A DNA stretch of 64,000 nt from Squalus acanthias (Eukaryota), in NCBI GenBank assembly GCA_030390025.1, contig CM059453.1, positions 7,502,001 through 7,566,000 on the forward strand, given 5' to 3'. The notes under the pieces were generated by a model. The model saw nothing but the letters and a program-made list of their open reading frames with translations, did no database searches and had not been told where the DNA came from. Positions 1 to 63,987 of the stretch are shown one piece after another. The translations under genes and the position numbers were made by a program. Positions within the stretch are counted from its first letter, which is position 1, and each line of letters opens with the position of its first letter.

Positions 1-1743
1 ATGAAAGGTAATGAAACTAGGGCGATTGCTAGAATGGGTGACTTATCTGGAATGAGAGTTTTGACCACGGCGGCCATTTCAAATTCTACTTCAGTCTGCT
101 TCTACCTCCTCTGTCCTGTTGCTTAATAAGTTTAAGCACTTCTGTCAAATCATCCCAAAGTCTGTTTTAGCCTTATAATATCTGCCCCAATTATTAAATA
201 CTTGCTTGGTGTTTATACATCCTCATACCAGCCAGAAACCACGCGAATCCGCCCTAAATCCTTCCTATAGTCTGGAGCCCAATACCCGCATTCTTACTCC
301 AACTGTGAACTGACTACTGCTCTCGTTAGAATCTCCACTATTCTCGAATTTATATTATTGATCTCTTGCCATTAAACCAGAGCTCCAGAAACATCTTCAT
401 ACACTTTCCACTGGAGGTGCCACTTTTACTCTCTCATGAACCTGACCCCAAATTCCTCTGCTGATTCCACATCTCCCAGCTTCCTACGGTTCAAATTAAC
501 ATCTACCACATCATATTTTCTGACCTTTAATTATATCTGCCCTTTATGTCCCCATTCTACTATATCTCCAGTATCTTTTTGTAACATCGCTTAGGTTTTC
601 TAGTTATCAACTGGGAGTTGTACTTGCAAGGTTGGCATGGGTTTCAAACTGGCGATATTGGATGCGCCTCTAATTGTACACCCCGCCCAATTTTCATTTT
701 GATGGAATCCAATTAATTCCTGCCGGGAAATTTTGACATTTTTCTCTTTAGCGCCTTCTCCAAATTATTGATGCACACAGTGAGTAGAAGCAATCCCACA
801 GGACAACCCTATGGGAAACCGTACTGGGATCCAACTATTCTGAACAACTGCGCTTAACAGCGACTCGCTGCATCGTCCCTTCTAAACAGTTTGTATTGCA
901 ATTTCTACCTTATCCTTAAATCCAAACCTCTTAATATCTTCTGCAATAATCTCCTCTGTTTACCGTCGGTAATGGCTGCTTGATTACATTTCAAGTTACT
1001 TTTTGGTGAAGCGTCTTTTGACGTCGCGAGGACTTAAAAGGCGTTGAATTAATGCAGTCTTTGTTCGTGCCTTTCCCTATCCAGCGCTCATTTACCCCGC
1101 TTTTAATTAGATCTTAATTAAAAATTAGATATTTCAGTAACGTGAAAATCAGTTCAAGCTATAATTTATTTGTTCATTCAAATCCCACGGCTACAAATAC
1201 TATTTCTGCTGAAGCCTTCTTCAGATTTACACTCAAGGAACCTGCTCTGCTTCTCCCACACACGGTGGTGTTTCCCGTCGTTTGTCTGGTCTGTCTACGT
1301 CTTGAGCATTATCGTTCTATGTTGACGTTTCTTGACAACAGAATCGAGATTTCTCTGGGTCTGCATTAATCACCATCACATAGGCAATTGCTGGTGCAGA
1401 ACAAGGTATACGAGAGGATGAAATATTCGTGACATTTGAGGAGTTAACGTTAATTCTAAGTCCAGCGTGCAAAATTTGTTCACTGGACAATATCCATGAT
1501 ACAAATAATTTGGATATATAACCTCGACTAATGGTTATTTAACTGGGCCCTTTTGTTACCCGATGAGGCATAAAACTGCATTACAACTTCGAGGAGTAAT
1601 TCAGAATGGTGACACACTTGCAACACGTGGCAGAGAAGAATGAACAAAATGTGATTTTCTTGTTATTTCATTCTCAGATTTAGTTGTAAGCCCATTTTAA
1701 TCTGAAATGTACCTAACAAGCTGGTTTTCTCCCGTTTTTATAG

Positions 1744-2055
1744 AAAAGCCAGAGATTTCACGTTATGGGGAATTGATCGCTGGACAAACTGCACGATTGA
1801 ACTGTTCCGTCACGCACAACTGCCCGGATGGCAACCTGAAACTGAAGTGGATTAATTACAATGTGTCCCGTTCTACCGCAATGGATACTCAAGATGGAGC
1901 AGAAATTAGCAATGAAAGTTCAGGTTCTCGGACAGTTTCATCCGTGATCACCTTTACACCATCATCTGCTCATGACGGGAAAATTCTGGGATGCACAATT
2001 CTAATTGATGGTATCCCAACTCCTTCAGCACAATATATTACCTTGGAGCTGAAAG
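1744..2055 (+). CDS. Copy A exon: first C2-set Ig domain (Siglec domain 2)
   Basis: ttttatag|AAAAGCC ... AAAG|gtaag, 312 bp, phase 1-1, open. EKPEI...RLNCSVTHNCPDG...W...SSVITFTPSSAHDGKILGC; the extra Cys (HNCP) is typical of Siglec domain 2. Confidence 0.92.
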
Positions 2056-2454
2056 GTAAGTGTCTGGTCGAAAGTAAACAGAGTTATCCTGACGGACAAC
2101 GGGCTCCAAATCTGCAATTTTAGCACAAGTAATTTATTAGGGTTTAGAACTGCATCAGAGGATGAATCATGAAAATCTCAGCCTCTGCACCAGGAGAGCT
2201 CACATCGATAATCAAACGTTCGGAATGGCTCTCATCTAATTCTCATCAGTCAGATTACATTAGAAACATTCATATCCATGAATCAATTATGGGGCCTACA
2301 ACAGATTTTTTGATGTGATTGTTAATCTTTATTCTATGAACTTCCAGTCAGGTTCTGAGTTTAGTCAATCATAAATGGAAGCAACAAAGGCCATGCCGAG
2401 TTCGGATCTGAAGCTATGACACCAGATCTCAGCTCTGGTTGGGCTTAATAAGAA

Positions 2455-2570
2455 CTTAAGAATTAGGAACAGGAGTGGGCCATACGGCCCTTCGAGCCTG
2501 CTCCGCCACTCCGGCAATCATGGCTGATAATCGAAGTTAACTCCAATTTCCCGCTTGATCCCCATACCCA
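2455..2570 (-). mobile_element. CR1 3' tail fragment (also in copy B at ~63535-63660)
   Basis: aagaattaggaacaggagtgggccatacggcccttcgagcctgctccgcc; its presence in both copies shows it predates the gene duplication. Confidence 0.75.
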
Positions 2571-2641
2571 ATATAATGAATTAATTAGGAGCTCAATTAT
2601 GCTTATTCGACCATCACGTTTTGCATTAACGTCTGATTCAG

Positions 2642-2899
2642 AGGGACTGGAAATCACAACCGTCAACTGCTCTATAGTCGCTGTGGAAGGAAGTTCATTG
2701 TTATTTTCCTGCACGGCCTGTGGGAAACCCCTGGTCAGTTTATAATGGGTGCAAAATGGGGAAGAGATCAGCAGGTCTTCCACTGGTGAGCTAAAGCAGA
2801 TATTGCGCAACATTCGTTCTGAGGACGGCGGTGAATATTGGTGCATAGCTGAAAATGCCCTGGGCACCACAAAACCTTCCACATAAATTTCTGTACATT
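2642..2899 (+). pseudogene. Copy A exon: second C2/I-set domain with two in-frame TAA stops
   Basis: gattcag|AGGG ... CATT|gtaag, 258 bp. TAA at 2743-2745 and 2884-2886, where copy B has AGA and CAG. EDGGEYWCIAEN motif resembles MAG domain 3. Confidence 0.9.
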
Positions 2900-3827
2900 G
2901 TAAGTATGTATTAATTTATCAATTAGACAGTAGCCTTTCATTTCACGAACTATGGATTAAATTCCAATTTTCTCTTGCCTGATTGCTGGAAGGCGCCCAT
3001 GTGCACGCGGTTGGTACAGGTTCACCCCTTCCCGCGGAAATAGCGGCAAACTACCTCGATGGCTTCAATAATGGAAACTGACCTGGCATCTCGCTCAGTA
3101 TGACAGGAGTGGAATATGGCACAATGTCTCATAAATGCAGCAGTTCTTTAATTTATGAGGTTGCGACACAAGCACATTTACTGGGACATTTACACTACAA
3201 CTAATTGTTCATAAGTTATACTCATCATCTGAAATAAACAATTTTCCAATCCTTAGAGCCGACTTGCAGCAATTTGATGATTACCAATTATTTCAAAAAA
3301 AAGTGTGATAAAATGGTGTTCAGACAACTCCTGTTACTTGTATTAGTGTTGAGTTAATAGTGTAATATTCTCGCGTCTTGGTTCTTTGAAATGTCGCCTT
3401 GTGAGCCGGACGTTTATTGAAAAATCACGTCAGTCCACCACAAATGAAGTTGTTTAAACAGTACACAAAGTGAAGACATTGAATTAAATTGACCTTTTAA
3501 AACATTGACTGGTGAGACACCTTTGTGGGCTATTATACATAATCAAATCTCTGAGCTAGCTCCGTCTGAGGGTCCCTCACCACATCTGTCATGAGATGCA
3601 TTGATGGACTGAACACTCATTGGATTTAATATGGAATTGTTCCTAACGAGCTCACCTGTTATAAGTAAAAATATAATAAGCCATGAACTGGTGCAACATA
3701 GACTGCTTCATCTTAAAATATAACAACCAGAACTATTATTGTTAGTTCAACTCATTACTTCATTGTATTTTGACACTACAACTGTTTTCATGATCATTTC
3801 CTATTGAAGTTTCCATATTTTTTTTAG

Positions 3828-4115
3828 GTAAACCCACAATTTTAGCAGGCCCGACATGCACCAACTCTGAGAATTGGACGGATTGCAGCTGCCGGATCAG
3901 AGCCAATCCCCCGGGAAACATCACGTGGGACCTCAATGGGAGAATCCTCACTGGGGACAGGTCAGATGTGGAAATCATCTCCTGGGCGGTGAATAGTCAC
4001 CGAATGGTGAGCTCCCTGAGACTGACTCACTCACCCGGAACCGGAAACCTGATCTCATGTGTTGTTGCAAACGAGCACGGTGAATCTGTCAGTATATATG
4101 ATCTCCACTCTAAGG
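3828..4115 (+). CDS. Copy A exon: membrane-proximal C2 domain
   Basis: tttttag|GTAAACCC ... AAGG|gtacg, 288 bp, open. KPTILAGPTCTNSENWTDCSCRIRANPPGNITW...ISCVVANEHG; the C-x8-CxC pattern matches the last Ig domain of MAG and CD33-related Siglecs. Confidence 0.9.
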
Positions 4116-4774
4116 GTACGTTTTTAATCTATCTGTAATGTAAAACTATAAGGGAGTTGGTACATCACTGGTCAGTCACTAACTGAACGGTGTTAGTGTC
4201 AGCAAATACCAGCTCCAGTCAGCAGGTCCACACGGAATCTAACTCGAATTAGTGTTAGGACCTATTTTCAATCAACAACTGAAAGGTGCGGTCGGCATTA
4301 TCCATTTAAACTTTCAGTCTTCTGAAACTGGCTCGGTTTATATTTTTAGATATGATGAAATTATCTGAACACCAGAAGTAGCCAGTGATCTTGGAAAACA
4401 AATTCTTCTGAATTAAGATAAACACTTTTGAAAATCCAAATTACTCTTAATACATGATAGCAAACTGCAATCTGCCCTAATTGTATGTACATGATCATTT
4501 CTATCTTGTTCAGACTCATTTAAGTATGTAAAGCCGATATTTAATAACCCATGTGAAACTGAATTATCTCTATAGATTATAAATCTTACCGCTGTAACTG
4601 GTGACCTTAGCGTTCCGGTATTATGATTGGTTTATGCCCCCTGTTTTTCCGAGGGTGGGTTTTCGCGCTAACTTCATTTTTCAATTATGATTTTTCCACC
4701 AGCGAATCTTAAATTATTTATTTCAAATTTACGCCAGGCCGCAACACAGGAATAAAATGCTTTTACGCAAGGCT

Positions 4775-7700
4775 GAGACAAGCACGATTTACCTTTTGTA
4801 AATCCATGTTGACTTTGTCCGATCCTGTCACTGTTTTTCAAATGCTCAGCTATTACATCCTTTATAATGGACTCTAGCATTTCCCCCACTACCGATGTCA
4901 GGCTTTCCGGTCTGTAATTCCCGCTTTATCTCTACCACCCTTTTTGAATAGTGGGGTAACATTAGCTACCCACCAATTCATGGGTACAGTTTCAGATTCC
5001 ATCGAATGTTGGAAGATGACCAGCAATGCATCTATTATTTCTAGGGCCACTTCCTTAAGTACGCTAGGATGTAGATTATCAGGCCCTGGGGATTTATCGG
5101 CCTTCAATCCCGTCAATTTCGCTCACACCATTTCCCTGCAAATACTGCTTAATTTCAGTTCCTCCCTTTCATCGGACCCTATGTTCTCTAACATCTCTGG
5201 GAGGTTATTTGTGTCCTCCTTTGTGAAGACAGAACCAAAATCTGCATTTACTTGGTCTTCCATTTCTTTGTTCCCCATTATAACTTCCCCTGCTTCTGAC
5301 TGCAAGGGACCTGCACTTGATTTCACTTAACTTTTTCTTTTCTCATATCTATAAAAGCTGGTACAGTCAGTTTTTATGTTCCCAGCAAGCTTACGTTCAT
5401 ATTCTATTTTCCCCATCTTAATAAATCCCTTTGTCCTCATTTGTTAAATCCTAAACTGCTCCCAATCCTCAAGATTACCGCTTTTTCCGGCCAATGTGTA
5501 TGCCCTCTCCTTGAACCTTATGCTATCCCTAATTTCCCTTGTTAGACACAGTTGAATCTCCCTTTTTGTTTTATTCTTATGCCACTCTCGGATGAACAAA
5601 TTCTGTAGTTCATCTATGCAGTCTTTGAATGTTTGCCATTGCCTATCCACCGTCAACCCCTTGAGTGAAATTCCCCAATCAATCCTACCAATTCGCGCCT
5701 CATACCATCGTAGTTTCCTTTATTTCAATTCAGGACCCTTGTCTCTGATTCAACTACTTCACTCTCCATCCTAATGAAGAATTCTATCATATTATGATCA
5801 CTCTGACCCAAGGGGCCTCGTGCAACAAGATGGCTAATTAATCCTTTCTCGTTACATAATACCCAGTCTAAGATGGCCTGATCTCTGGTTGGTTCCTCGA
5901 CATATTGTTCCAGAAAACCATCCCATAAACATTCTAGGAATTCCTCCTCCACAGTATTTTTACTAATTTGGTTAGCCCAATCTATATGCAAATTAAAGTC
6001 ACCCATGATGACTGCTGTGCCCTTACTGCATGCCTCTCTAATTTCACTTTTAATGCCGTCCCCGACCTCCGTATTACTATTTGGAGGTCTATATACCACT
6101 CCCACTGACGTTTTCTGCCCCTTGTTATTTCTCAGTTCTACCCATACAGATTCCGCATCATCAGAACTAATATCCTTCCTTTCCATGGTGTTAATCCCCT
6201 CTTTAACCAGCAATGCTACCCCAACTCCCTTTCTTTTTTGCCTATCTTTCTTAAATAACGAATAACCCTGGATTTTGAGTTCCCAGCCTTGTCCACCCTG
6301 GAGCCATGTTTCTGTAATCCCAATCAAATCATATTCATTTACCTCTATTGGCGCAGCTAATTCGACCACCTTGTTCCGAATGCTCCTTGCATTAAGACAC
6401 AAAGTCTTCAGACTTGTTTTTTTTAACGCTCTCAGACCTATATGAATTATTATTTACTGTGACCATGTTTGATTTAAACCGTTGAGTTCTTTGCCTTCTA
6501 CTTTAGTTATTCTCCTTCCTGTCTTTTGCTTTTATCCTTGTTTCCCTTTCCTCTGTCTCCCTGCTCTGGTTTCCAACCCGCTGCCACCTTAGTTTAAACC
6601 CTCCCCAACAGCACTAGCAAACACTCCCCCGAGGACATCGGTCCCGGCCCTGCCCAGGTGCAAACCGTCCCGTTTGTACTGGTCCCACCTCCCCCATACC
6701 CGTTTCCAATGTCCAAGGAATTTGAATCCCTCCCCCTTGCACCATTCCTCCAGCTATGTATTCATTTGAAACATCCTCCTATTACTACTCTGACTAGCAC
6801 GTGGCACTGGTAGCAATCCTAAGATTACTACCTTTGAGGTCCTATTTTTAAATTACGTCCTATCTCCCTCTATTCTGCTTTTAGGTCCTTATCCCGTTTT
6901 TTACCTATATCGTTGAAGCCAAAGTGCACCACAACAACTGGCTGGTCGCCCTCCCCCTCCAAAATGTTCTGTAGCCACTCCGAGACGTCCTTGAACCTTG
7001 CACCAGGGAGGCAACACACCATCCTGGAGTCTCGTTTGCGGCCGCAGAAACGCCTATCTATTCCCCTTACAATTGAATCGCCTATCACTATAGCTCTTCC
7101 ACACTTTTTGCTCCCAGCCTGTGCAGCAGAGCCACCTATGGTGCGAGGAAGTTGGCTGCTGCCGCCTACCCCTGCTAAGTCATCCCCCCCAACAGCATCC
7201 AAAGTGGTATATCTGTTTGAGAGGGGGAAGGCCACAGGGGAACCCTGCACTACTTGCCTGCAGCTCTTATTCTCGCTGGTGGTCACCCTTTCACTTCCTG
7301 CCTGTACACTCTTTACTTGCGGTGTGACCAACTCCCTAAACGTGTTATCCACGATGTTCTCAGCATCGCGAATGCTCCAATATGCATCCATCTGCAGCTC
7401 CAGCGCCGCAATGTGGTCCGTCAGTAGCTGCAGCTGGATACATTTCCCACACACATGGTCGTCAGGGATACAGGAAGCGTCGCTGATTTCCCACATATAG
7501 CAGGAGGAGCATATCACGGGGCAGAGCTCTCCTGCCATGATTTACCCTTTAATTAATTAATTACAATTAAACTGATTGAATGCCACCAATTTCAATTCAA
7601 TTAAATGATATACTCAAGAGCCTTTGCTTAACAGCCGTCCCCGCTACACCACAGAGACTCTAGAAACTATAAACCACAGAATTTAAGTATGGAAAAAAGG

Positions 7701-8255
7701 AGAAAGAGAGAAATACTCACCAACCAATCACTTACCTGCTTTCTGCTGATGTCACTCTTCGATTACTTTTTACTTCTTTACACTCACCGGTCCGTTGCAG
7801 CTCACCTTTGAAATCTCCCGAGGTTTGGCGCTCTCCAGCCGCTCTCGTTCACCTTTGAAATCTCCCGAGGTTTGGCGCTCTCCAGCCTCTCTCGCTCACC
7901 TTTGAAATCTCCCGAGGTTTGGCGCTCTCCAGCCGCTCTCGCTCACCTTTGAAATCTCCCGAGGTTTGGCGCTCTCCAGCCGCTCTCGCTCACCTTTGAA
8001 ATCTCCCGAGGTTTGGCGCTCTCCAGCCGCTCTCGCTCACCTTTGAAATCTCCCGAGGTTTGGCGCTCTCCAGCCGCTATCCGCTTTAATTAATTGAACT
8101 TAAATTAAATCAAATCAATCCCACCAATTATACTATAATTAAATGATATAGGGCCCTTGTTTACCAACTTTCCCCGCTACACCACAGAGACCCTAGAAAC
8201 TTTAAATCACAAAATTTAAGTTTGGAAAAAAGAGTTAAAGAGAAATACTCACCAA
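4775..8255 (-). mobile_element. CR1 LINE: 5'UTR, ORF1, endonuclease and start of RT; 3' end missing
   Basis: ORF1 6870-7538 has CxxC..CxxC, a coiled coil and GDS..GxND esterase motifs. APE domain 5725-6402 (CLNARS, ITETWL, GDFN, SDH). RT breaks off at QHGFTKGKSCL. Confidence 0.92.
7801..8080. repeat. 47-bp tandem repeat, 6 near-identical copies, in the CR1 5'UTR
   Basis: ctcacctttgaaatctcccgaggtttggcgctctccagccgctctcg starting at 7801, 7848, 7895, 7942, 7989, 8036. Confidence 0.95.
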
Positions 8256-8410
8256 CTTCTGTGTTTCTAAGCGGAGTGCCTCACTTTCCATTAGCTTTCT
8301 GATCCAAACATAAAGGAAACTTGATACCTCACACACAAAAATTTGCTTCGAAGATTGTTGTTTAAATCCAATTCCTTAAGGTACAGCAATGTTTCTTTCC
8401 AATTTTTTAG

Positions 8411-8504
8411 GAATATTCTCCAGGACAATTGTTCTCATCATAAGAGGAGGAGCCACTGGGATTTTTTTTCTAATTGCAGTCGTGCTCCTGCTGAAGATAC
8501 AAAG
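8411..8504 (+). CDS. Copy A transmembrane exon
   Basis: ttttttag|GAATA ... CAAAG|gtatga, phase 1-2. GIFSRTIVLIIRGGATGIFFLIAVVLLLKIQR. Confidence 0.85.
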
Positions 8505-9596
8505 GTATGAGTGATTCCTAATTACATAGAATGAAGTTTTAAAGGGGATCCTGCATCAGAAATTTCGTGTATAAAAAGGTCGTTGAAATTAATCTCCCGT
8601 GAGTAGAGTGAGCAAATGCCTGAATCGAAGCTGAAAGGAGGTGGGTCAATCGTCCCCTGACCAGTCGCTCGCATCTCCCAGCATCAGCTATGGAGTAATA
8701 TTAGTGTCTGCTTCAATGGGGCTATCTCTGCATTCTTCTTGTTATATTATTGCGATTTGTTTCCTTATAGTTAACTGACATTTTTGGACTTCTGATCGCT
8801 GTCGCGCTATGCGCCAGGGATTGTTTTCGCCTACCGTGTAATCTAGATAAAATTCGCAGTATGCTCAAAGAATGGACAGAGAAACCCTTCCAGTTAGTTT
8901 CTGCTGCTGGTTTTACGGGGCATCCTCACTCAAGCCTCCTTGCCATGTCAGGCTCCCAGCACAACACTAAACCAGATTGATATTAAGTTCTAACAATCAA
9001 GCAAGTCCAGCAAACAGTAAAACAACAAACAAATAGTCAAATTAACGTGACACATATGTTTACAGTAGTGGTTAAGTTTGTTTGGATCCAGGAGTAGAAT
9101 ATTATATTTCAAAATTGGGTGTGACTGATGTGCTAAAGTATGATATAAGGGATTATTTATGTTGGGCTTGTTATCTTATTCTTACCAGTGACTTAATATA
9201 TTTGGCATGACTAGCTCTCACTGAAAGATCTCGACAGAATCCCCGCTTATAATGGATATGCTGATAATTAGCTTCAAGGAGGTGAACGGCTCCAAGTGAA
9301 TTCCAATTATATCTATTCGGTTTACAATCTGCTGCAAACCAAAATTACTCTTCAACAAATCACAAACGATGTTTACAATTGAAATCAGTGACGGGCTCCT
9401 TAGATAGGCACCCTCCATAACAGATAATGATTCGGCAACAAAAATAACAAGATGAGTTCGAATACTCTTGTGAGTTTTGCTGGATTATAACCCTTCCTGT
9501 ACCATGCTAAGTAATATATAAATGCTTCTTTCAGTGATACTGAGGAAGGATCTCAAAGTGGTTATTGAGGAAAATTGATTTATTCCCCATTTCACA

Positions 9597-10395
9597 CTCA
9601 AATTTTGATATATATTAATAACTTGGACATGGGGGTACAGGGCACAATTTCGAAATTTGCAGATGACAGCGAACATGGAAGTGTAGTGAACAGTGAGGAA
9701 GATAGTAATAGAGTTCAAAGGGACAGAGACAGGCTTGTGGAGTATGTGGACACATGGCAGATGAAAGTCAACACAGAAAACTGTGAGGTGTTAGATTTGG
9801 GTAGGGAGAATGAGAAGAGACAAGACATGCGAAATGGTACAATTTTAAAGGGGGTGCAGTAACAGAGAGACGTGGTGCTGCTTGTGCACGACACTTTGTA
9901 ATTGGCAGGACAGGTTAATAAAGCATCAATAAAGATTATGGAAGCCTGGACTTTATAAATAGTTGCACAGAGTACAAAAGCCAGAAAGTTGTGCTCACCC
10001 GATAGAAAACATTGGTTCGGCCCCAGCTGGAGTATTGTGTACAATTCTGAGTACCACACTATCGGAAGGAGGTGAAGGCTTTGGAGAGGGTGCAGAAGAG
10101 ATTTACTAGAATGGTTCCAGGGATGAGGGATTACAGTTATGTGGATAGGCTGGAGAAGCAGGGCCTGTTCTCCTTAGAGCAGCGAAATAAATAGGAGATT
10201 TGATAGACCTGTTCAAAATCATGGAAGGTTTAGATAAAGTAAATAACGATAAATTGATTACAATGCCTGAAATTTCGTTAACCAGAGACACAGGTTTAAG
10301 GCGATTGGCGAATGAACCAGAGGCGACATGAGGACAAAATTAATTTAAGCAAAAAGTGGTTAGCATTTGAAATGCACTGACCGAAAGGGTTATAG
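9597..10395 (+). mobile_element. CR1 RT 3' fragment, degenerate
   Basis: IYINNLD..ISKFADD..WQMKVN and RPQLEYCVQF-type sequence with stops. Confidence 0.88.
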
Positions 10396-10750
10396 ATCTA
10401 GTAATCATAGATTGTAATGTGTTTGCACGTTGAAACTCTTCCATCTGCTACTTAATAAGTTGTTAAAATACTGAATGATCCTCCTATGTCCTATCAGCAC
10501 AATCAGCTTTCACCATGAGCAAGCAACTCCGCGCCATTAACCAGCTTCATTGATAAAGTCAACAGTTCCCTTTTGAAATGTAGGCAGATTGATAATTGAA
10601 AAGAATTGCAGAGCGGACGTGGTCTGTGCTAATCAGAAAACGTAAAAGATATAGGTCTCTCCTGACCTACGAACGTCCTTCACAGTATACATTAAGTAAA
10701 CATACCAGTTATCTATGAAATGTGCGTTATTGTTATTTGTTATTATTTAG

Positions 10751-10829
10751 GAAGAAGAGCAGTGAGACTGCATGCGTGCCGAAAACGACTAGTGGTGCGA
10801 TGGTGTACACTGGGGTTCTAAACGGCGAG
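10751..10829 (+). CDS. Copy A cytoplasmic exon 1
   Basis: tatttag|GAAGAAG ... GAG|gtaagt, phase 2-0. RKKSSETACVPKTTSGAMVYTGVLNGE: basic stop-transfer residues plus a Tyr motif. Confidence 0.82.
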
Positions 10830-11009
10830 GTAAGTGAAGCCAAGCTGGAGTGACAATTGTAGGATGTTTGGTGTGTTTTCAACCAGCGAGTGACCCAGAA
10901 CAGGCAAAGCCCAATAGATAAATGGGACTTTCAGAAATTTGGTCCCTAGTGTTTTAAGGGGGTAATAGCCACTAAGAGTGAAGTATATCGACGGACTCTA
11001 CAGATAGTT

Positions 11010-11490
11010 TTTTTTATTCGTTCTAGGGATGTGGGCGTGGCTGGCAAAGCCAGCATGTATTGCCTATCCCTAATTGCCCTTGAACATGTGGTGGTGAGCC
11101 GCCTTCTTGAACCGCTGCAGTCCGCGTTCTGAAGCTGCTCCCATAGTGCTGTTAGGGAGGGAGCTCCAGTATTTTGACCTAGCGACAATAAGGAATGGCG
11201 ATATATTTCCAAGTCAGGATGGTGTGTGACTTGGAGGGGAACTTGGAGGTAATGGTGTTCCCAAGCACCTGCTGGCCTTGCCCTTCTAGCTGGTAGAGGT
11301 TGCGGGTTTGGGAGTTGCTGCCGAAGAAGCCTTGGTGAGTTGCTGCAGTGCATTTTGTAGATGGCACACACTGCAGCCACGGTGCGCCGGTGGTGGAGGG
11401 AATGAATGTTAAATGTGGTGGATTGGGTGCCACTCAAGCGGGCTGCTTTGTCCTGGATGGTGTCGATTTTGTACAGTGTTGGGGCTGCAC
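11010..11490 (-). mobile_element. 3' end of a CR1/L2-group LINE
   Basis: LHHRRTVAAVCAIYKMHCSNSPRLLRQ. The same tail recurs at ~37590-37725 (-), ~48090-48155 (+) and ~48935-49030 (-). Confidence 0.75.
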
Positions 11491-12084
11491 TACCTGTAGA
11501 TAGCGCCTTCGTAAGTGGAATTAGGGTGTATTTCCCACGTTGCTATTTCTATTCAAAACAAACTCTTTCAAAAATAATGCGTTCCCCAACTTACCTTACC
11601 CAATTCCCGTTACCATTAGGTCACATGAGGTTAAATATTCAACGCAGTCACAGAAGCTGTCAGATGTATCAGAGGGATCCATATTACTCAGGATTATGTT
11701 CAATTTCCGAACTGCACCTCACTGTCGATGTGGCCCAATTGTCCATCACCTTTAAGGCGGAAGGATTTGGGTTTAAGCTTCACTCCGGCATTTGAACGGT
11801 CAGTGCAACACTGAGGGAGAGCTGCATTGCCAGTGGTACGTCTTTTGAGACTTTAAAACGCGCTCCCGTTTGCTTCTTCCTGTGGAGGGAAGCGAAATCA
11901 CGTTCTTATTGTGGAATCGGAAGAATGTTCTCCCCGTACCCTTGCAAGCATTTCTCCCAATAAACACAATCTAAAAAAGATTAATTCGCCATTTGTCTAA
12001 TTTACTGGTTGCTGCATGTTGCTCCAACAGTGATTATACTTTAAAAGTGATCCATTGACTAGCAACGCTTTGCTATTATTAAAC

Positions 12085-12720
12085 ATGGAATCACACAGCA
12101 CAGAAGAGGCCATTCAGGCCACCGTGTCAGTGTTGGATCATGGAAAGATCTAACCAAGTCTTCATGTGAGCCCTGCTCTTTCCCCATCGCCCCTGAAAAT
12201 GTTCCCCTTTTCAAGTATGTATCCAAGTCACCTTTGAAAGTTACAATTCAGTCTGCCTCTACCATTCTTGCAGGCAATACATTCCAGATCATACGAACTC
12301 GCAGCGTGAAAAAAGTCTCCCTCTCGTTATTTTGCCAATCAGCTTAAAATTGAGTCCTCTGGTAACCGACACTCCTGCCAGCGGAAACAGTTTCTCCGAT
12401 TTACTCCATCAAAAACATTCATAACTTTGAAATCCTCTTTTAAATCTCCCCAAACCTTTTCTGTTCTAAGAACATCAATCGCCGCTTCTCCAGTCTCTCC
12501 GCATAATTGAAGACCCGTAACCCTGGCAGGATTCTAGTAAATCTCCTCTGCAAATTCTGTATGTCTTGACATCTTTCCTAATGCGTGTACTTGACACAAT
12601 GCTCCAGCTGAGATCAAACCAGTGATTTTTACAGGTTTAGCGTAACTGCCTTGATTTTGTACTCGATGAATTTATTATAAATCTATGAGTCCCGAATGCA
12701 TTTAAACAGCCTCAGCAACT
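12085..12720 (-). mobile_element. Degenerate CR1 3' fragment
   Basis: acagcacagaagaggccattcaggcc tail followed by antisense RT C-terminal sequence similar to other copies in the window. Confidence 0.7.
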
Positions 12721-12917
12721 TCCTCTGATATAAATTTGGAAGATATTTATTTCTAGCATCAAGACCTCACAACGCATATCTCATGAATGAGCGCCATTAG
12801 AAAAGTTACCAGAGATTATATAGTTAGCTGTGCTCTGGTGCAGACAGCGCACTCCCATCGTGTTCAACTTTAAATCTGCAATAGCTCCATATCTAACACG
12901 AATTTCTTCCATTACAG

Positions 12918-13617
12918 AGGGACGATTACGTGAGCCCCGCAATCGATGCAACCAGCTCAGAATGAAGAGATTTTGTCCGTGACTGTCAATGTCTCACACA
13001 TCCGCAATCATGAACCATATAGCCCAAATGAGGAGACTTGCGAATATGCACCAATTAAACATAAGAAATAGGAGCGGGAGTAGGCCAATCGGCCCCTCGA
13101 GCCTGCTCCACCAATCAATAAGATCATGGCTGCTCTGATCTTGGCGTCAACTTCACTTTCCTGCCTGTTCCCCATAACCCTTGACTCCCCTATAGCTCAA
13201 ATATCTGTTTATCTCTGCCTTGAATATATTGAATGACTCAGCCTCCACAGTTCTCTGGGGCAGAGTATTCCAAAGATTCAGCACATTCTGAGAGAATAAA
13301 TTCCTCCAAAAAGCCACCTTAAATGGGCGACGCCTTATCCTGAATCTATGCCCCCTAGTTGTAGATTCCCCCGCGAGGGGAAACATCCTCTCAGCATCAA
13401 CCCTGTCAAACCCCCTCAGAATCTTAGATGTTTCATTAAGATCACCTCTCATTCTTCGAAACTCCAATGAGTATAGGCCCAACCTGCTCAATCTTTCCTC
13501 ATAAGACAATCCCTTCATCCCAGGAATCAACCTAGTGAACCATCTCTGAACTTCCTCCAATGTAAGTATATCCCTCCTGAAATAAGGAGACCAAAACTGT
13601 ACGCAGTACTCCAGTAC
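12918..13617 (+). pseudogene. Copy A cytoplasmic exon 2, frameshifted and split by a CR1 insertion
   Basis: attacag|AGG GAC GAT TAC... reaches TGA at 12963-12965. The +1 frame reads QNEEILSVTVNVSHIRNHEPYSPNEETCEYAPIK, then CR1, then TAC|gtaagt (13615-13623). Paralogous to exon 21238-21411. Confidence 0.72.
13060..13614 (-). mobile_element. 5'-truncated CR1
   Basis: ORF 13153-13560 (VQRWFTRLIPGMKGLSYEERL...) plus cataagaaataggagc tail. Confidence 0.92.
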
Positions 13618-17872: not shown

Positions 17873-18079
17873 ACTGGGATGCACTGGGTGCTGTGTGCAT
17901 TGGCACCAGCAATGGTTCCTGAAGATTATCTCCAACTTGTATTCCCAGTGAAATCGAAATGAGTTGAACTTTAGACAATATTCCAGCCAAAACCATTCGC
18001 TAATGGATCCAATATAACAAATGCATTGTTTATAGAAAGTCAAAAGGACAGCGAAGTGTAGGTCATGGACTGAAATCTA

Positions 18080-19882
18080 ACGAAGAGATTTGAATGGCTC
18101 ATGTCTAAATTAACAGATACCCAACAATGACTTCGCGATTGGATTCTGATCTATTGTTTTGGGTGGTTTATATGTAAAATCACGGATACCCGGAAGTGAG
18201 TAACAGGCTGGAATCTAATCGAGGGGTTCGGGGTTTATATATAGAATAACAGATACCCAAGAATGAGTTACAGGCTGGAATCGAATCGAGGTGTTCGGGG
18301 GCTTATATATAGAATAACAGATACGCGAGAATGAGTTACAGGCTGGAATCGAATCGAGGTGTTACTGGGTTTAATATATAGAATAACAGATACCCGGGGG
18401 TGAGTTACAGTCTGGAATCTAATCGAGGGGTTCGGGGTGGTTTATATATAGAATAACAGGTATCCAGGAGTGAATTACAGGCTGGAACCTAATCGAACGG
18501 TTAGAGGGTTTATATGTAGAATAAAAGATACCTGGGAGTGAGTTACAGGCTGGACACTAATCGAGGGGTTCGGGTGGTTTATATATAGATTAACAGATAC
18601 CCAGGAGTGAATTAAAGGCTAGAATCTAATCGAGGGGTTCGGGGGTTTTATGTAGAATAAAATATACCTGGGAGTGAGTTACAGGCTGGAATCGAATCGA
18701 GGTGTCATGGGGTTTATATATAGAATAACAGATACCCGGGAGTGACTTACAGGCTGGAATCTAATCGAACGGATCGAGGGTTTATATGTAGAATTAAGGA
18801 TACCTGGGAGTGAGTTACAGGCTGGACTCTAATCGGGGGGTTCGGGTGGTTTATATATAGAATAACAGATACCCGGGGGAGAGTAACAGGCTGGACTCTA
18901 ATCGAGGAGTTCGGGGGGTTTATATATAGAATAACGGATATCCGGGAGTGAGTTGCAGAATCGATTCTAATCGAGTTGTTCGGGGTGATTAAAAATAGAA
19001 TAACAGATAACTGGGAGTGATTTACAGGCTGGAATCTAATCGAGTGGTTCGGGGGGATTATATATAGTTTTACAGATACCCGGAGTGAGTTGCAGACTGT
19101 AATCTAATCGAGAGCTTCGTGGTGTTAATATATAGAATAACGGAAACCCGCGATTGAGTTGCAGGCTGGAGTTTTATCGAGGGGATCGGGAGTTTATATA
19201 TAGAATAACATATACCCGGGAGTGAGTTACAGACTGGAATCTAATCGAGGGGTGCAGGGGTTTATATATAGAATAACAGATACCCGGGAGTGAGTTACAG
19301 GCTGGAATCTAATCGAGGTGTTCGGGGGGTTTATATCTAGAATAACAGATACCCGGGTGTGAGTTACGAGCTGGAATCTAATCCAGCGGTTCGCGCGGAG
19401 AAGGAAGTTGTTTATATATAGAATAACAGATACCCGGGAGTGAGTTACAGGCTGGAATCTAATTGAGGGGTTCGTGTGGTTAAATATATAGAATAACAGA
19501 CACCCAGGAGTAAGTTACAGACTGGAATCTAATCGAGGGGTTCGGGTGGTTTATATATAGAATTAGAGATACTCGGGAGTGAGTTACAGGCTGGAATCTA
19601 ATCGAGGGGTTTGGGGGTTTTATATGTAGAATAACAGACTCCCGGGAGTGAGGCACAGGCTGGAATCTAATCGAAGGGTTCGGGGGGTTTATATATAGAA
19701 TAACAGATAGCAGGGTGTGAGTTACAGGCTGGAATGTATTTCGAGGGGTTCGGGCGTTTATATATAGAATAACAGATACCTGGGACTGAGTTACAGGATG
19801 GAATCTAATCAAGAGATGCAGGTGGTTTATATATAGAGTAACAGATACCCGGGAGACAGACACAGGCTGGAATCTAATCGAA
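18080..19882. repeat. ~68-69-bp minisatellite, about 25-26 copies
   Basis: Unit gagtgagttacaggctggaatctaatcgaggggttcgggtggtttatatatagaataacagatacccgg. Confidence 0.95.
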
Positions 19883-20356
19883 GTGCCCAGTGGAATGGAA
19901 TGAAATAGCCACTGTTCCAATTCGTGATCACTGCCGAGTGACCCCTTCCCACCTGTTCACCGGGCCCGTATCTTGGCTGCGTAAGCCCAGGAATGGCACA
20001 CTGTGAGCAGGGAGCCCACAGGCAACCAGTGAGCTTACGTTAACAATGTCCACTGCATCCCAGAGAACAATTGAAAGCCCTATCACCGTGCGCTAGCCAG
20101 ATTAGAAATTCATCGCGGGCGATAGCGTAAAACTGTTGGTATCGCATCGCAGCGACTGAAATATTAAGAGGGGCCAATGACAGGCGGCTGTTCCGTTTTG
20201 CTCTTCTGTACAAGACAAATCCTACTCCAAAGTGTTCTGAAACGGAAGTTTACATTTAGATGGGACAAGAACATTCAGTTTACTGGTAAATAAAAACACT
20301 CTATTTTATCCCGTGTGCTGACAGTGTGTCCCGGGACTAAAATCAGTGGATCCACC

Positions 20357-20372: not shown

Positions 20373-20539
20373 GTGGCCAGAAACGACTCCTTCGTCAGAA
20401 CTCGCCCTCGTAACTATATTTACATTTCGCTAGCACACAGATTGAAAGGCATGGGAGACCAAAGTGAGTCTCCCTCTCACGTATTGTTTGCCAGCAATGA
20501 TTCTGTTTAAATCGAAGCAGAAATCATTCTTGTTATCGC

Positions 20540-21228
20540 CGTACCACTTGTTCTGTGTGTATCTATAACACGTGTTCTGTGTGTATCTTTACCAAGTGCT
20601 CTTTGTGTATCTGTAACACGTGCTCTTTGTGTATCTGTACCACGTGTTCTTTGTGTATCTGTAACATGTTTTCTTTGTGCAGCTGTACCACGTGTTCTTT
20701 GTTTATCTGTACGTCTTGTTCTGTTTTTATCCGCACCACGTGTTCTTTGTGTATCTGTACCACGTGTTATTTGTGTATCTGTACCAAGTGTTCTTTGTGT
20801 ATCTGCACCACGTGTTCTTTTTAAACATTCACCACGTGTTATGTGTGTATCTGAACCACGTGTTCTTTGTGTATCAGGAGCACGTATTCTGTGTGTATCT
20901 GTACCACGTGTTATTTGTGTATCTGTACTACGTGTTATTTTTGTATCAGTGTCACGTGTTCTTTGTGTATCTGTACGACGTGTTCTTAGTATATCGGTAA
21001 CCCGTGTTCTTTGTGCATCAGTACCACGTGTTCTTTGTATATCTGTTCTACGTGTTCTTTGTGTAACTGTACCACGTGATTTTTGTGTATCTGCAACACG
21101 TGTTCTCTGTGTATCTGTACCAGGTGTTAATTGTGTGTCTGTACCACGTGTTCTTTGTGTATCGGTCTCACGTGTTCTCTGTGTATCTGTACCACGTGTT
21201 AGTTGTTTATCTGTACCACGTGTTCTTT
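20540..21228. repeat. 24-bp minisatellite, about 28 copies, most with CACGTG
   Basis: Unit tgtgtatctgtaccacgtgttctt; the array ends at the acceptor of the last exon. Confidence 0.95.
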
Positions 21229-21237
21229 CTGTTGCAG

Positions 21238-21411
21238 AGGGAACATTATGAGAATGAACCCGACAATGAAGTTCGAAAAGTGATATCCAACTTGACGAAG
21301 CAGAACGAAGACATTAATTCCGCCACTCTGCACGTTTCAACTCTTCCTCAAGGGCACGGATATGTTCATTGCAAAGAAATGAGCGAATATGCAGATATGA
21401 AATTTACCTGA
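21238..21411 (+). CDS. Copy A terminal cytoplasmic exon with Siglec-type tail
   Basis: ctttctgttgcag|AGG, phase 0. REHYENE...QNEDINSATL...EMSEYADMKFT*, resembling the C-terminal EYxxI/V motif of MAG and CD33. Confidence 0.85.
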   Translation, partial: REHYENEPDNEVRKVISNLTKQNEDINSATLHVSTLPQGHGYVHCKEMSEYADMKFT

Positions 21412-23816: not shown

Positions 23817-24186
23817 TTGAAATCGAAAGAGTGACCTGAGACATGGGCGAGTCTTGTTCTGCAGGATTCTTGGCGGTGGTGATCTTCAGTGTGATGTAAT
23901 AGTCACCTTCTTCGCTCTTCCTGATGTCCATTATCCGGAAGGAACATTGTTTCTTTGTGAATGCGCCGGTGAATTCAATTCGCCCTTTATATTTAAATTG
24001 CATCCCTGGAATTCTAGAAAAAAAATGACCCTTCGGGTATCTGAATCAGAACACCCTTTAAGAACTTAAACCGTGGATTACTGCAACTGAGGGGATGGTC
24101 AAATGTACACGGGACCTCTGCGCATGAACCGCTCACTGCCGACACAATCCATGACACCCTCACAGACCATCCTGAAGTACGGTCAA
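23817..24186 (-). pseudogene. Inverted Siglec-like V-set pseudo-exon
   Basis: ctctttcag| ... |gtaagt on minus, 370 bp (out of phase). GWSVRVSWIVSAVSGSCAEVPCTFD, then a frameshift, then YKGRIEFTGAFTKKQCSFRIMDIRKSEEGDYYITLKI...VTLSIS. Confidence 0.88.
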
Positions 24187-24630: not shown

Positions 24631-24843
24631 GATGCGGAGATGCCGGTGTTGGACTGGGGTGGACAAAAATGAGAAGTCGCACAACACCAGGTTATAGTCC
24701 AACAGTTTTATTTGAAATTACGAGCTTTCGGAGCTCCGCTCCTTCTTCAGGTGCCTGATGAAGGAGCAGAGCTCCGAAAGCTCGTAATTTCAAATAAAAC
24801 TGTTGGACTAAACCTGGTGTTGCGCGACTTCTCATTTTTGTCC
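24631..24843. mobile_element. Penelope-type palindromic element
   Basis: 24661-24843 is a near-perfect inverted repeat (~90-bp arms, centre 24752-24753) inserted in the TTTC tract. Confidence 0.8.
24752..24786 (+). ncRNA. Minimal hammerhead ribozyme motif (second copy on minus strand, ~24719-24753)
   Basis: CTGATGA, A, GGAGC/AGA/GCTCC stem II, GAAA, GCTC, with stem I TGC/GTA. The minus strand has CTGAAGA-A-GGAGC-GGA-GCTCC-GAAAGCTC. Confidence 0.7.
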
Positions 24844-25559
24844 TTCTTTCTTGATCAGCCATGATCTCATTAAATGGCGGAGCAGGATCGACGGGCCGAA
24901 TGGCCTACTCCTATCTTCTATGTTTCTATGTTTCGATCTTTCTTTCCTTATTTCTATCTCTCTTGCTTTCTTTCTTCAATCTTTCTCTCTTTCTTTCTTT
25001 CCTTCTTTCTTTCTTATTTTCGATCTTATATGGGGACCTGTAAGCGATCATCGTGAACGACCGAAAACTGATGAAGAAATAGACAGTAAACACACTTTGA
25101 AATCTCCAATAATATAACAATTAAAACATTGCCTGACCGCGACGTTAAATGCGATTAAATTAACCTTTAAACACCTACCAACACTTTCTTTAGTAAAGCT
25201 ATTAAAAATCGTGACATTTTTACTAAAACGCTTTAAAATACATAATAACTGCCGAATAAAATAAACATTAAATACCACATTGCTAATTTGCTGAGGAATA
25301 ACTAACCGTCTACACTTTCTATAACAAAGTACCTTGTTATTTTGCCACAAGATGGAAATTGCTTCTGACAGAAATTATTAAAACTAATATTTCAACTTTG
25401 CTAAATATCAGAATGGAAATAAATGTAATACTCTTCATGGCTGGAGACGTTTCACAGAGTCAAAATTATAAAACAGATTATCTCAGATTTCAGATGAATC
25501 ACGTTTCCTGATTCTGCTCCCGTGCAATACACTGAATTTCCGAGCTAATCGAAGCAGAA

Positions 25560-46869: not shown

Positions 46870-49586
46870 GAAGTGATTAGGTGGAGAACAGGAGCGGATT
46901 TAATGACAGAAGTTATAGTAGCGTAAAATGAAAGTAGAAATAAGTAGACCAAAGGGAATCTTCCCATTAAATGTTCCCTGGGTAAATTTATTTCCTAGAA
47001 AGTGGCTTGAAAGTGGAAGTCGCTACCACATGGAGTAGTTGAGGGGCATTGCATAGATTAATTTAAGGGGGAGCTAGATAAGCTCAAGAGGGAAAAAAAG
47101 AATATTAGGTTATGCTAATAGCCTGAAAGGAAGAGCGTTGGAAGGAGGCTCGTGTGAGCCATGTACTAGTTGGTCAGTATGGCCGCTTTCGGTGCTGTGA
47201 ACACAATGTAAATGGACACTGTCAGTAACACACAGAGATAATCTTCCCACTATAGTAGTACCATCAGGAACACATAAATCATGCGCTTAGTATGAAATGA
47301 AATTATATAAACTACACCCGTTGCAAATGACATTGCTGGATTGGTCGACATGACAACACCCGGGTCCGGTATGACTCTGCCAGTATTGATCAGTTGGACT
47401 GATGTCAGGTGGTGGAGCATACTGCCCGCAGAATTTATTTCATTACCCGCTGGATTTACCCTTTGAACTGAAATGAAAATGACAAACCAATGCAATGGGG
47501 TGTAATTTTCTGGTGTTGGAACTGAAACATTTAGAGCTGTGACAAGGAACCAGATTGCAAAAATGTTTCATTCAGGCATTACATTTACAAAATGCGAATA
47601 CAATACAAATTGTCCATTACTCCAATGGATTCCTATCCCTGTCCTCAGTACCTTTGGCACGAGAATATTTTGCACACCGCCACACGTGCTTTCTGAAGGG
47701 TGCATTCTAATCCTACCTCCTATCCCTTTCTAATCAATTGTGCATTTGCGAAATATGCCTACATGTCGCAAAGTCACCTCAGGAAGTGATAAAGTCAAAC
47801 AATTTATTAAGTAAATCAGCGAAGTTCGCTGGGAAGAGAACTGCTGGGAGCTGGGATTAGACCAACACTTCTTCCAACAACCTCACAACAACAAAGTAAA
47901 AAACTTGCTTTTATATATCGCCTTTTACGACCTCAAGACATCCCAAATCGCTTTACAGCCAATGAAATACGTTTGAAGTGTGGTCACTGTTGTAGTGTAT
48001 GGAAATTGTCAGTCATATTGCACGGAGCAAATCCCACATACCAACAGCGTGATAATGTCCAGAAGTCTGCTTTAGTGATTTTTGATTGAGGCAATTAGGG
48101 ACGGGCAATAAATGCTGGCCTTGCTAGAGACTCCCACCTCCCAGGAACGAATAAACAATAAATTTTTAAAAATATTGAATGTAAGTATTTGTGAGTGGCT
48201 GAAAATAACTTGGATACAGCGAACAGCTCACCAGAGATTTCTGTAGAATGTTAGTGATGCATGTTTTTTCCAATTAGATAGTTGCATTTCATTTCCTGGA
48301 ATCGGCGTTAAAATATAACTTTCCCTTGACTGTTTGGAGTAAATCTGTAATGTGAAAGCAAATCGAGACTGTCTAGTCAACCCACAGCAAACAACCTCGA
48401 TGTCTCCAATCACACAAAGTAAATTGGGCGACTCGCTCAGGGTGACAGGGGCTCCAGATGGAAGAAAGTAATAGCAATCCAGCAGTTGGCGCTTTTCTCA
48501 AATTGGTTCAGTAGCACCTTTACTGCGAACCTCAATCTCCATCGAACACTAACATTAATAATATTGCATTCCCCAGAACTGAACTCTAAAACTTTCAAGA
48601 TTACAGATTCCACACAAACATCCAAAATATTGTGGGAAACCCAATCAATGTTATGTGTGTAAATACTAAGTTCACAATTTAATAATCAGAGGCTCCATCA
48701 TTTGCACTATATATATATATGTTCGGTGCACATCTTTTGAAGTAACGCATCCGTCCAGCACAAAGGGAAGATATTTAAAAAAATACATCTCGTAAAGAAA
48801 GTGAAATTGGTTGTCCTTTCTTGCAGATTGAAAGGTGAGGCTCATTGCTCGGTATATTATATACAGATACCAGTCTGAGCCTCCACCCATTCTGAAAACT
48901 CCACAAGTTCTGCCAGGAGAAGTATGGTTTTGTTTTTTGTTTCTGGGATGTCACCGGCAAGGCCAGCATTTATTGACCATCCCTAATTGTCCTTGAGAAG
49001 GTGGTGGTGAGCCGACTTCTTGAACCGCTGTTCTTTACAACTGAGTGGCTTGCCAGGTAATTTCAGAGGGCAGTTAAGAGTCAACCACATTGCTGTGAGT
49101 CAGGAGTCACATATTGGCCAGACCAGGTAAGGACGGCAGGTTTTCTTTCCGAAAGGATATTAGTGAACCAGATGGGTTTTTACAACAACCTGATAGTTTC
49201 AGGGTCACCATTATCTGATACTAGCTTTTACATTCTCGATTTATTTTTTAACTGTTAAAATTCCACAGCTGCAGTGGTGCGATTTGTACTCACGTCTTCT
49301 AGATCATTAACCAGACTTTAGCATTACTAGTTCAGTAACAAAACCACTATGCTACCGTTCCCGATTAAATTATGCATTCATTGGATTGATTATAAAGGTG
49401 CAGCTAACGCGCTGAATTGTTAACTGTGGAATAAGTAATAAGCTACTAAACTGCAGTAACATCGGCTGCTTAATATTTAACTGGACTGTGACAGGATCTC
49501 CTTGAGAGTGTAACACCAAACACATATGTTTCCATACATCGCAACTGATTGATACAAACTCGTTTCATACAGGAATGTTTTTTTAG

Positions 49587-49880
49587 ATAAACCCGGAATA
49601 TTATCAAGTCCGAGCTGTACCAGCGCTGAGAATTAGACTGATTGTATCTGCAGCGTTTGAAGCAACCATTCCCGCCCAGCAAACCTCACTTTGGTCCATA
49701 ATGGGAGAGTCATCACTGGAAACAGGTCAGATGTCGAATGCATCTCCTGGGCAGTGAACAGTCACGTGGTGCAGCGTTCCCTAAGAATGGGTCACTCAAC
49801 TGAAACAGTAAAACTGATCTCATGTGTTGCAGTTAACGAGCACAATGTTAGTGTCAGCAAATATCTGCTACATTCAGCAG
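49587..49880 (+). pseudogene. Orphan membrane-proximal C2 pseudo-exon
   Basis: ttttag|ATAAACCC; homologous to 3828-4115 (NGRVITGNRSDVECISWAVNSH). TAG at 49634, TGA at 49658, and the donor is mutated to GG. Confidence 0.88.
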
Positions 49881-50289
49881 GGAAATTCTGAGTTCACCTG
49901 TAATTCAGATCATGTATAGATCTGGTCCATCACGAACAGACACTACCTGAATGGTATTATTGGCAGCAAAAAACAACTCAATTCAGCAGGAAAATATTGA
50001 GTTTATCTGGAATTTAGATACTTGAAGGGGAGCTGGTCCATTAATGGCCGCTCACAGACTGAAGGCTGTGATCGGAATGATCCCTTTCAAATTTTAGTTT
50101 CCCATCTGTTTGTAATTCTTAATATAGGAAGAACGTAATTAAACAACTGGGAGAGCCTCTGACCTTTAATAACATACACCGTTCTGAATTAAGTTAAAAC
50201 CTTAAGAAAATCAGGTTTTCTCCTACGATAATGTTGGAAAAAAAATGCAATCTATCGATTCATTGCTAAGTAGTGAAGTCACCAATTCC

Positions 50290-54031: not shown

Positions 54032-54074
54032 ATGAGGACTTGCGTGTTGGTTTATCTCATGGTATTGACCGAAG
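54032..54074 (+). CDS. Copy B signal-peptide exon
   Basis: gccATG Kozak context; MRTCVLVYLMVLTE then G|gtac, phase 1, in frame with the V exon (AFCSA...). Confidence 0.82.
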
Positions 54075-54696: not shown

Positions 54697-55077
54697 CCTT
54701 TTGTAGTGCTCAATGTTCTGTGGTGATGCCAAAAGTTGTGTCGGCGGTGTTGGGTTCTTGTGCAGAGATCCCGTGTAAATTTGATAACATGGGTTACATC
54801 GCCAACCTGAACGGGAGATGGATAAAGAGGGAACCTGGTCCTGGAAAACCCAATGAATCCATTATCTATGATTCGAATGGTCCATTCCGGCAGCATTATA
54901 ATTATAGTGGCAGAGCTGAGTTCAAGGGCAACATTGAAAAAAGACAATGCTCCCTCCTGATAAAGGAAATCCGAAAGAGTGATGAGGGTATATATCAGTT
55001 CATCATAAGCATCACCTCGGGCAGAAATTATATTACACATCGCATTGACCGTTCTGACGTCTTTCTTTCTGTTTTAG
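54697..55077 (+). CDS. Copy B V-set Ig exon, Siglec/MAG-like
   Basis: ttttctcag|CC ... TTAG|gtaag, 381 bp, open. MPKVVSAVLGSCAEIPCKFD..W..YSGRAEFKGNIEKRQCSLLIKEIRKSDEGIYQF. Confidence 0.93.
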
Positions 55078-57758: not shown

Positions 57759-58070
57759 AAAAGCCAGAGATTTCAGGTTATGGGGAATTGATCGCTGGAC
57801 AAACTGCACGATTGACTTGTTCTGTCACCGACAGCTGCCCGGATGGCAACCTGAAACTGAATTGGATTAATTACAATGTGTCCCTTCCTCCCGCAATGGA
57901 TACTCAAGATGGAGCAGAAATTAGCAATGAAAGTTCAGGTTCTCGGACAGTTTCATCCGTGATCATCTTCACACCATCATCTGCTCATGACGGGAAAATT
58001 CTAGGATGCACAATTCTAATTGATGGTATGCCAACTCCATCAGCACAAAATCTTACCTTGGAGATTAAAT
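57759..58070 (+). CDS. Copy B first C2-set exon
   Basis: ttttatag|AA ... AAAT|gtaag, 312 bp, open, paralog of 1744-2055. Confidence 0.93.
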
Positions 58071-63729: not shown

Positions 63730-63987
63730 ATGGACTGGAAATCCCAACCGTCAACTCCTCTATAGCAGCTGTGGAAGGAAGTTCATTATTATTATACTGC
63801 AAGGCCTGGGGGAAACCCCTGGTCAGTTTAAGATGGGTGAAAAATGGTGAAGAGACCAGCAGGTCTTCCACTGGTGAACTAAAGCAGATATTCCACAACA
63901 TTCGTTCTGAGGACGAAGGTGAATATTGGTGCATAGCTGAAAATGTCCTGGGCACCGCCAACCGATCCACACAGATTTTAGTACAGT
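63730..63987 (+). CDS. Copy B second C2/I-set exon; gene continues beyond the window
   Basis: gtttcag|AT ... CAGT|gtaag, 258 bp, open. YGLEIPTVNSSIAAVEGSSLLLYCKAWGKPLVSLRWVKNG...EDEGEYWCIAENVLGTANRST. Confidence 0.93.

Follow-up and report, generated by a model that had tools for sequence, protein, structure and literature searches.

An arginine-less Siglec-like gene of Squalus acanthias and its branch of Siglec-fold receptors in sharks and rays

The window, a 64-kb stretch of Squalus acanthias DNA, carries close to its right end the first part of a gene on the forward strand, here called the main gene, together with parts of three other copies. Four exons of the main gene are visible: a signal-peptide exon at 54032-54074 (phase 1, with a GT donor), the V-set exon with the Siglec fold at 54697-55077 (381 nt, with AG/GT ends), a C2-set domain 2 exon at 57759-58070 and an open exon for an Ig domain 3 at 63730-63987. 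The remainder of the gene, the TM and tail included, lies beyond the window edge. When all positions of the window were scored against 8 signal peptides of the family, the signal exon reached 31.0 and the next candidate 22.1. None of the four visible exons is interrupted, their splice sites are intact, and the joined frame runs for 331 codons without a stop. Residues are numbered here along the V domain of the main gene (P0001), with the mature protein offset by 4 given its putative cleavage site. The closest proteins come from Heterodontus (61% and 59%) and Heptranchias (56%). The public annotation of related proteins uses names no more specific than MAG-like or Siglec-like, and an Atlas search gave CD22/CD33-like clusters only.

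All three of the other copies in the window are broken. The upstream paralog (1743-13071, forward strand, ends approximate) consists of domains 2-4, a TM and two tail exons, its V exon preceding the window. It is 87% identical to the main gene across domain 2 and the preceding intron, and its domain 3 contains two stops; in-frame skipping of this domain is conceivable given that several relatives have no domain 3. The TM of this copy (8410-8506, forward strand) carries an Arg, reading IIRGGA where relatives read IIGGGA, and in its last exon (12880-13071, forward strand) both plausible frames end ahead of the distal tyrosine motif. The TM Arg and short tail resemble an activating partner, but the stops in domain 3 tell against this. 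The inverted paralog lies on the reverse strand, with a frameshifted V exon of 370 nt at 23817-24186 and a signal-peptide-like exon at 25396-25438 (3' end approximate), which has a degraded-looking donor and resembles the signal exon of the Arg-keeping relative P0011. No domain 2 was found on that strand anywhere in the window. Between the two exons, at 24661-24843, there is a near-perfect 184-base inverted repeat (94.6%). The remnants of a further copy on the forward strand, a domain-3 fragment at 48162-48248 and a domain-4 exon at 49586-49888, both contain stops. Two tandem-repeat arrays with units about 80% identical occupy 18050-19885 and 20500-21250, and the introns are filled with many reverse-transcriptase fragments that we take to be LINE-like.

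The V domain of the main gene matches Pfam V-set (E 3e-12) and Ig_CD22 (E 2e-8), so the match is not due to chance. Its AlphaFold2 model, built from 17 sequences (pLDDT 86), has sialoadhesin as the top structural match (Z 18.0, rmsd 1.6 over 111 residues) and also matches MAG (Z 17.3). By sequence, sialoadhesin is again the best solved relative, with 25-27% identity to sialoadhesin and MAG. The B- and E-strand cysteines are present (Cys26 and Cys84, bond predicted), the F-strand Cys position is Phe101, and both candidates for the inter-domain pair are found, Cys21 in the GSC motif of domain 1 and the Cys in the SCP motif of domain 2. C2-set domains follow the V domain, as expected of a Siglec. 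The residues of the sugar pocket are different. The F-strand motif GIYQFI aligns with GTYNFR of sialoadhesin, putting Ile102 (ATC, 55002-55004, forward strand) in place of the essential Arg97. Model residues 1-122 superpose on sialoadhesin chain residues 1-117, residue 1 on residue 1, which places Cys6 (TGT, 54714-54716, forward strand) on Trp2; none of the three visible domains offers this cysteine a canonical partner. The second aromatic contact, Trp106, would be replaced by Arg115 (CGC, 55041-55043, forward strand) according to the C-terminal register, with an offset of 5, although a short local sequence alignment puts Tyr111 against Trp106 and makes the G-strand assignment less sure. The initial annotation had described a Siglec-pattern V domain with an Arg-less F strand and a Cys for the A-strand Trp, and had proposed superposing it on domain 1 of Siglec-1 or MAG; the comparison bears out the described features.

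Both replaced codons are reproduced by contigs from DNA runs with no other letters (X2 records 2 and 6; X3 record 14), and an assembly error at these codons is unlikely for that reason, though the assembly may have been made from that very sample. Both individuals also carry a second, closely similar version of the V exon (54833-55058; runs X2, X3 and X5), either an allele or a paralog. Its changes, among those listed, include positions 54833, 54847, 54857, 55006, 55008-9, 55030, 55048 and 55058; all listed changes alter amino acids and several fall in the FG loop and G strand.

With sialoadhesin (Siglec-1) and MAG (Siglec-4) the main gene shares the fold, the B-E Cys pair, the inter-domain Cys and the V-then-C2 order, and among solved structures MAG matches the full-length relative P0011 best, its last domain included (E 4e-46). 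In contrast to both, the shark gene has replaced Arg97, Trp2 and, by register, Trp106, and it sits in a multi-copy cluster with broken copies whose relatives have about four Ig domains. A MAG orthologue would be expected to be a highly conserved single gene with five Ig domains, which does not describe a multi-copy gene at 25% identity with three or four domains in its closest relatives. We class the main gene as Siglec-like, since it has the build of a Siglec-type receptor but not the defining arginine.

For the family survey 366 V domains were extracted from 168 stored proteins and 28 were taken as the family, including the two of the window; these rows are cluster representatives and not a census. 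The second V domain of P0002 (Thr at the Arg position, on a long branch), P0005 (Ile, without homology in its N-terminal half) and P0114 (Glu, groups with the outgroup) were excluded, and P0057 (Arg, from a ray) served as outgroup. A motif search of the 168 stored proteins gave nothing beyond four distant matches, and a protein search with the V domain alone yielded 4 rows, all of them known already. Across the 28 V domains the critical position is Arg in 7, Lys in 1 and neither in 20. Branch A, formed by the main gene and 15 others, has no Arg at all (Ile 12, Ser 2, Phe 1 and Thr 1), and the other branch keeps Arg in 7 of its 12 rows and Trp in 9 of the 9 rows with data. The family as a whole had been proposed to be without the arginine; this stands for the whole of branch A but not for the whole family, of which a minority of paralogs retain it. 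Branch A has a support of 100/92 on the V domain with the two trait columns, 89/88 (not starred) without them and 94/86 on the V domain plus domain 2, and domain 2 alone splits the two branches at 100/100 (24 rows, with a long-branch warning for two rays).

Within the other branch the arginine was lost separately, in P0013, P0014, P0019 and the inverted paralog, so that it has been lost at least twice within the family. Forcing all 20 Arg-less rows together is rejected (AU p 0.007), which rules out a single origin of all losses, and forcing the inverted paralog into branch A is rejected weakly (AU p 0.041), both p values being somewhat generous because the groups were named after the first tree was seen. 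The inverted paralog falls within the Arg-keeping branch in the V and the V plus domain 2 trees. Its F strand does read GDYYIT, with Thr at the Arg position as had been noted, but it is poor support for an Arg-less family, being frameshifted, placed in the other branch and still in possession of the Trp. It is a frameshifted copy with an Arg loss of its own, and only the main gene among the two V domains of the window is without both Arg and Trp.

Branch A includes the sharks Heptranchias, Heterodontus, Scyliorhinus, Carcharodon, Cetorhinus, Stegostoma and Chiloscyllium and the rays Narcine and Hypanus. Given these seven shark genera and two rays, its Arg loss probably predates the shark-ray split. 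One contig, X6 from organism B, agrees with 54858-54994 at about 83%, and the residues Y-Q-L-R-I-E in its loose end mark it as an Arg-keeping close relative, which could mean several losses rather than one old loss; loose ends of organism A at the same site read Y-E-L-S. Within the branch, 12 of 16 rows retain Ile and 10 of 16 retain Gln at position 100, whereas neighbouring loop positions are highly variable, a pattern more in line with a maintained new surface than with drift. Tails with ITIM-like motifs are found in 9 of the 15 database rows of branch A, a count that discounts P0002 (a fused model) and P0006 (a match within the TM). The public model of P0002, from Heptranchias, joins two Siglec-like genes and an intervening GPCR (PF00001) and is likely an annotation artefact.

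The A-strand Cys occurs in 8 of the 14 branch-A rows with data, versus 0 of 9 in the other branch and 2 of 214 Siglec-pattern V domains outside the family. It is carried by the main gene, Heterodontus twice, Carcharodon, Cetorhinus, Stegostoma and two Chiloscyllium species, thus by the main gene and five other shark genera, which rules out that it is private to the main gene. A single origin of the Cys is possible (p 0.062 and 0.050), the tree requires a minimum of 2 changes, and the A-strand position takes six residues over the branch (C, W, F, L, Y and I). Pairing with a Cys four residues upstream can be set aside, the latter being present in 2 of the 8 Cys-bearing rows and in several rows without the A-strand Cys. 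Other members have gained paired extra cysteines in their V domains (P0002, P0003, P0014 and P0017, joining the CC' loop to the F strand, the BC to the FG loop, or C to C'), indicating that the family often rewires its disulfides.

Arg loss in single mammalian Siglecs is already known, and the following comparisons draw on the accessible parts of the papers cited. A 2025 review describes the arginine as essential, and the term 'cartilaginous' is absent from its accessible text (PMC13358205). Four Siglecs are described as regularly present in fish in a paper whose accessible text does not contain the term 'shark' (PMC7226832). Our literature search, with most subscription journals and supplements outside its scope, found none that deals with this shark branch. 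In human Siglec-XII (R122C) and in great-ape Siglec-5/14 the essential Arg is mutated, as in the shark gene, and sialic-acid recognition is lost (PMC6288428); Siglec-XII has another role, in membrane rupture (PMC12779560), and human Siglec-5/14 bind the beta protein of group B Streptococcus without sialic acid (PMC6288428). These are recent losses in single lineages, whereas the shark loss characterises a branch of several genes and is accompanied by other changes to the pocket. Rodent Siglec-H is similar in that no sialic-acid binding was detected, that domain 1 has an extra unpaired Cys and that the Arg is replaced (Ser in rat), and it is a proposed pathogen sensor of unknown ligand (PMC4986536). 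Siglec-H is, however, one rodent gene that signals through DAP12 and has two extra cysteines which may pair within the domain (PMC4986536), while the shark gene has one lone Cys and its branch spans sharks and rays with ITIM-type tails. The shark branch represents a known type of loss that is unusual in its apparent age and breadth and is accompanied by a shared lone Cys.

The explanation we put first, with about even confidence, is that the main gene encodes an inhibitory immune receptor of a branch without the canonical sialic-acid site, reading a non-sialic ligand on a rebuilt face. The branch of sharks and rays would have lost the canonical site, with Ile, Cys and, by register, Arg taking the places of Arg97, Trp2 and Trp106. 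The face so rebuilt may read a non-sialic ligand, for example a host or microbial protein; the main gene presumably has a TM and an ITIM tail like its relatives, and the A-strand Cys would sit at the membrane-distal tip as a thiol that is either free or bonded to another chain. This explanation is supported by the Siglec fold match, the supported Arg-less branch, the kept Ile and Gln, the ITIM-like tails and the precedent of Siglec-5/14. It is weakened by the arginines at positions 40 and 115, the precedent of Siglec-6, the 89/88 support, the Y-Q-L-R-I-E relative and the broken copies in the window.

The main competitor, to which we give a clearly smaller but still appreciable weight, is that the receptor still binds an acidic glycan (a sialoside or a sulfated glycan) through Arg40, Arg115 or a non-canonical pocket. 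Arg40 (AGA, 54816-54818, forward strand), a C-strand residue that the usual strand pairing of V domains would make a cross-strand neighbour of Ile102, and Arg115 on the G strand flank Ile102 by strand register, an arrangement with which acidic-glycan binding by the main-gene protein may be compatible. Both positions are Arg in P0001 and its two closest relatives P0010 and P0008; over branch A, 8 of 16 rows are basic (Arg/Lys) at position 40 and 10 of 16 have Arg, Lys or His at the G-strand position. The D-strand Arg72, to which Arg92 of Siglec-6 may correspond, is kept in 15 of 16. Outside the family, 12 of 65 Arg-less versus 2 of 148 Arg-keeping Siglec-pattern V domains have a basic residue at position 40, as raw counts in which kin are not independent, but so do 2 of 6 Arg-keeping rows of the shark family, and an independent-pairs test of Arg40 against Arg loss finds at most 3 pairs and has no power. 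In a six-member Cys subclade, position 40 is Ile or Val and the G position is His or Val; with neither Arg nor Lys at either site there, compensation is possible for the main-gene protein but would not be general across branch A. The loss of both aromatic contacts also speaks against retained glycan binding. Siglec-6 binds sialylated glycolipids independently of its canonical Arg (PMC10122656), though unlike the shark gene it keeps that Arg. It is unlikely, we think, that the V domain binds no ligand itself and serves as a decoy or a cis-acting spacer, or is a decaying copy in a birth-and-death cluster with the Cys as tolerated drift. The three broken copies, the varied A-strand position, the repeated loss of Arg and the single step from TGG to TGT would suit such a history, but the open exons and intact splice sites of the main gene do not, nor does the sharing of this Ile and Cys by species from several shark orders.

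Covalent pairing as the main new function, with the A-strand Cys joining two receptor tips or a partner chain and closing the old sugar pocket, appears the least probable of these explanations. Nine cysteines are found in the three visible mature domains of the main gene and 8 have canonical partners, in 7 of the 8 V domains that carry the A-strand Cys it is the only spare Cys of the mature domain, and P0010 and P0007, a sister pair and the two closest relatives without the A-strand Cys, have a lone G-strand Cys instead (both have also lost the GSC Cys and have no domain 2). Relatives thus repeatedly have a spare thiol close to the old pocket. Against this, 6 of the 14 branch-A members have no such Cys, so the branch does not need it, and a lone Cys may be buried, capped by a small thiol or a cause of ER retention. 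Siglec-E does dimerise by a disulfide through Cys298, but this residue lies outside domain 1 (PMC12167017). Whatever the ligand, that the A-strand Cys forms some interchain bond is possible, though we would lean against it. We consider it improbable that this is an old elasmobranch branch of Siglec-fold inhibitory receptors which made the pocket into a new site and in which the lone Cys of a subgroup gives tip-to-tip dimers or a redox-sensitive or covalent ligand site; the literature examined yielded no Siglec instance of either mode.

Mammalian Arg-less Siglecs are recent losses in single genes that are often interpreted as pathogen escape. If the Arg-less face has been kept in sharks and rays by a multi-gene branch, this would point to a stable second use of the Siglec scaffold. 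The sister branch, with its Arg and Trp, offers matched natural controls for finding the non-sialic ligands.
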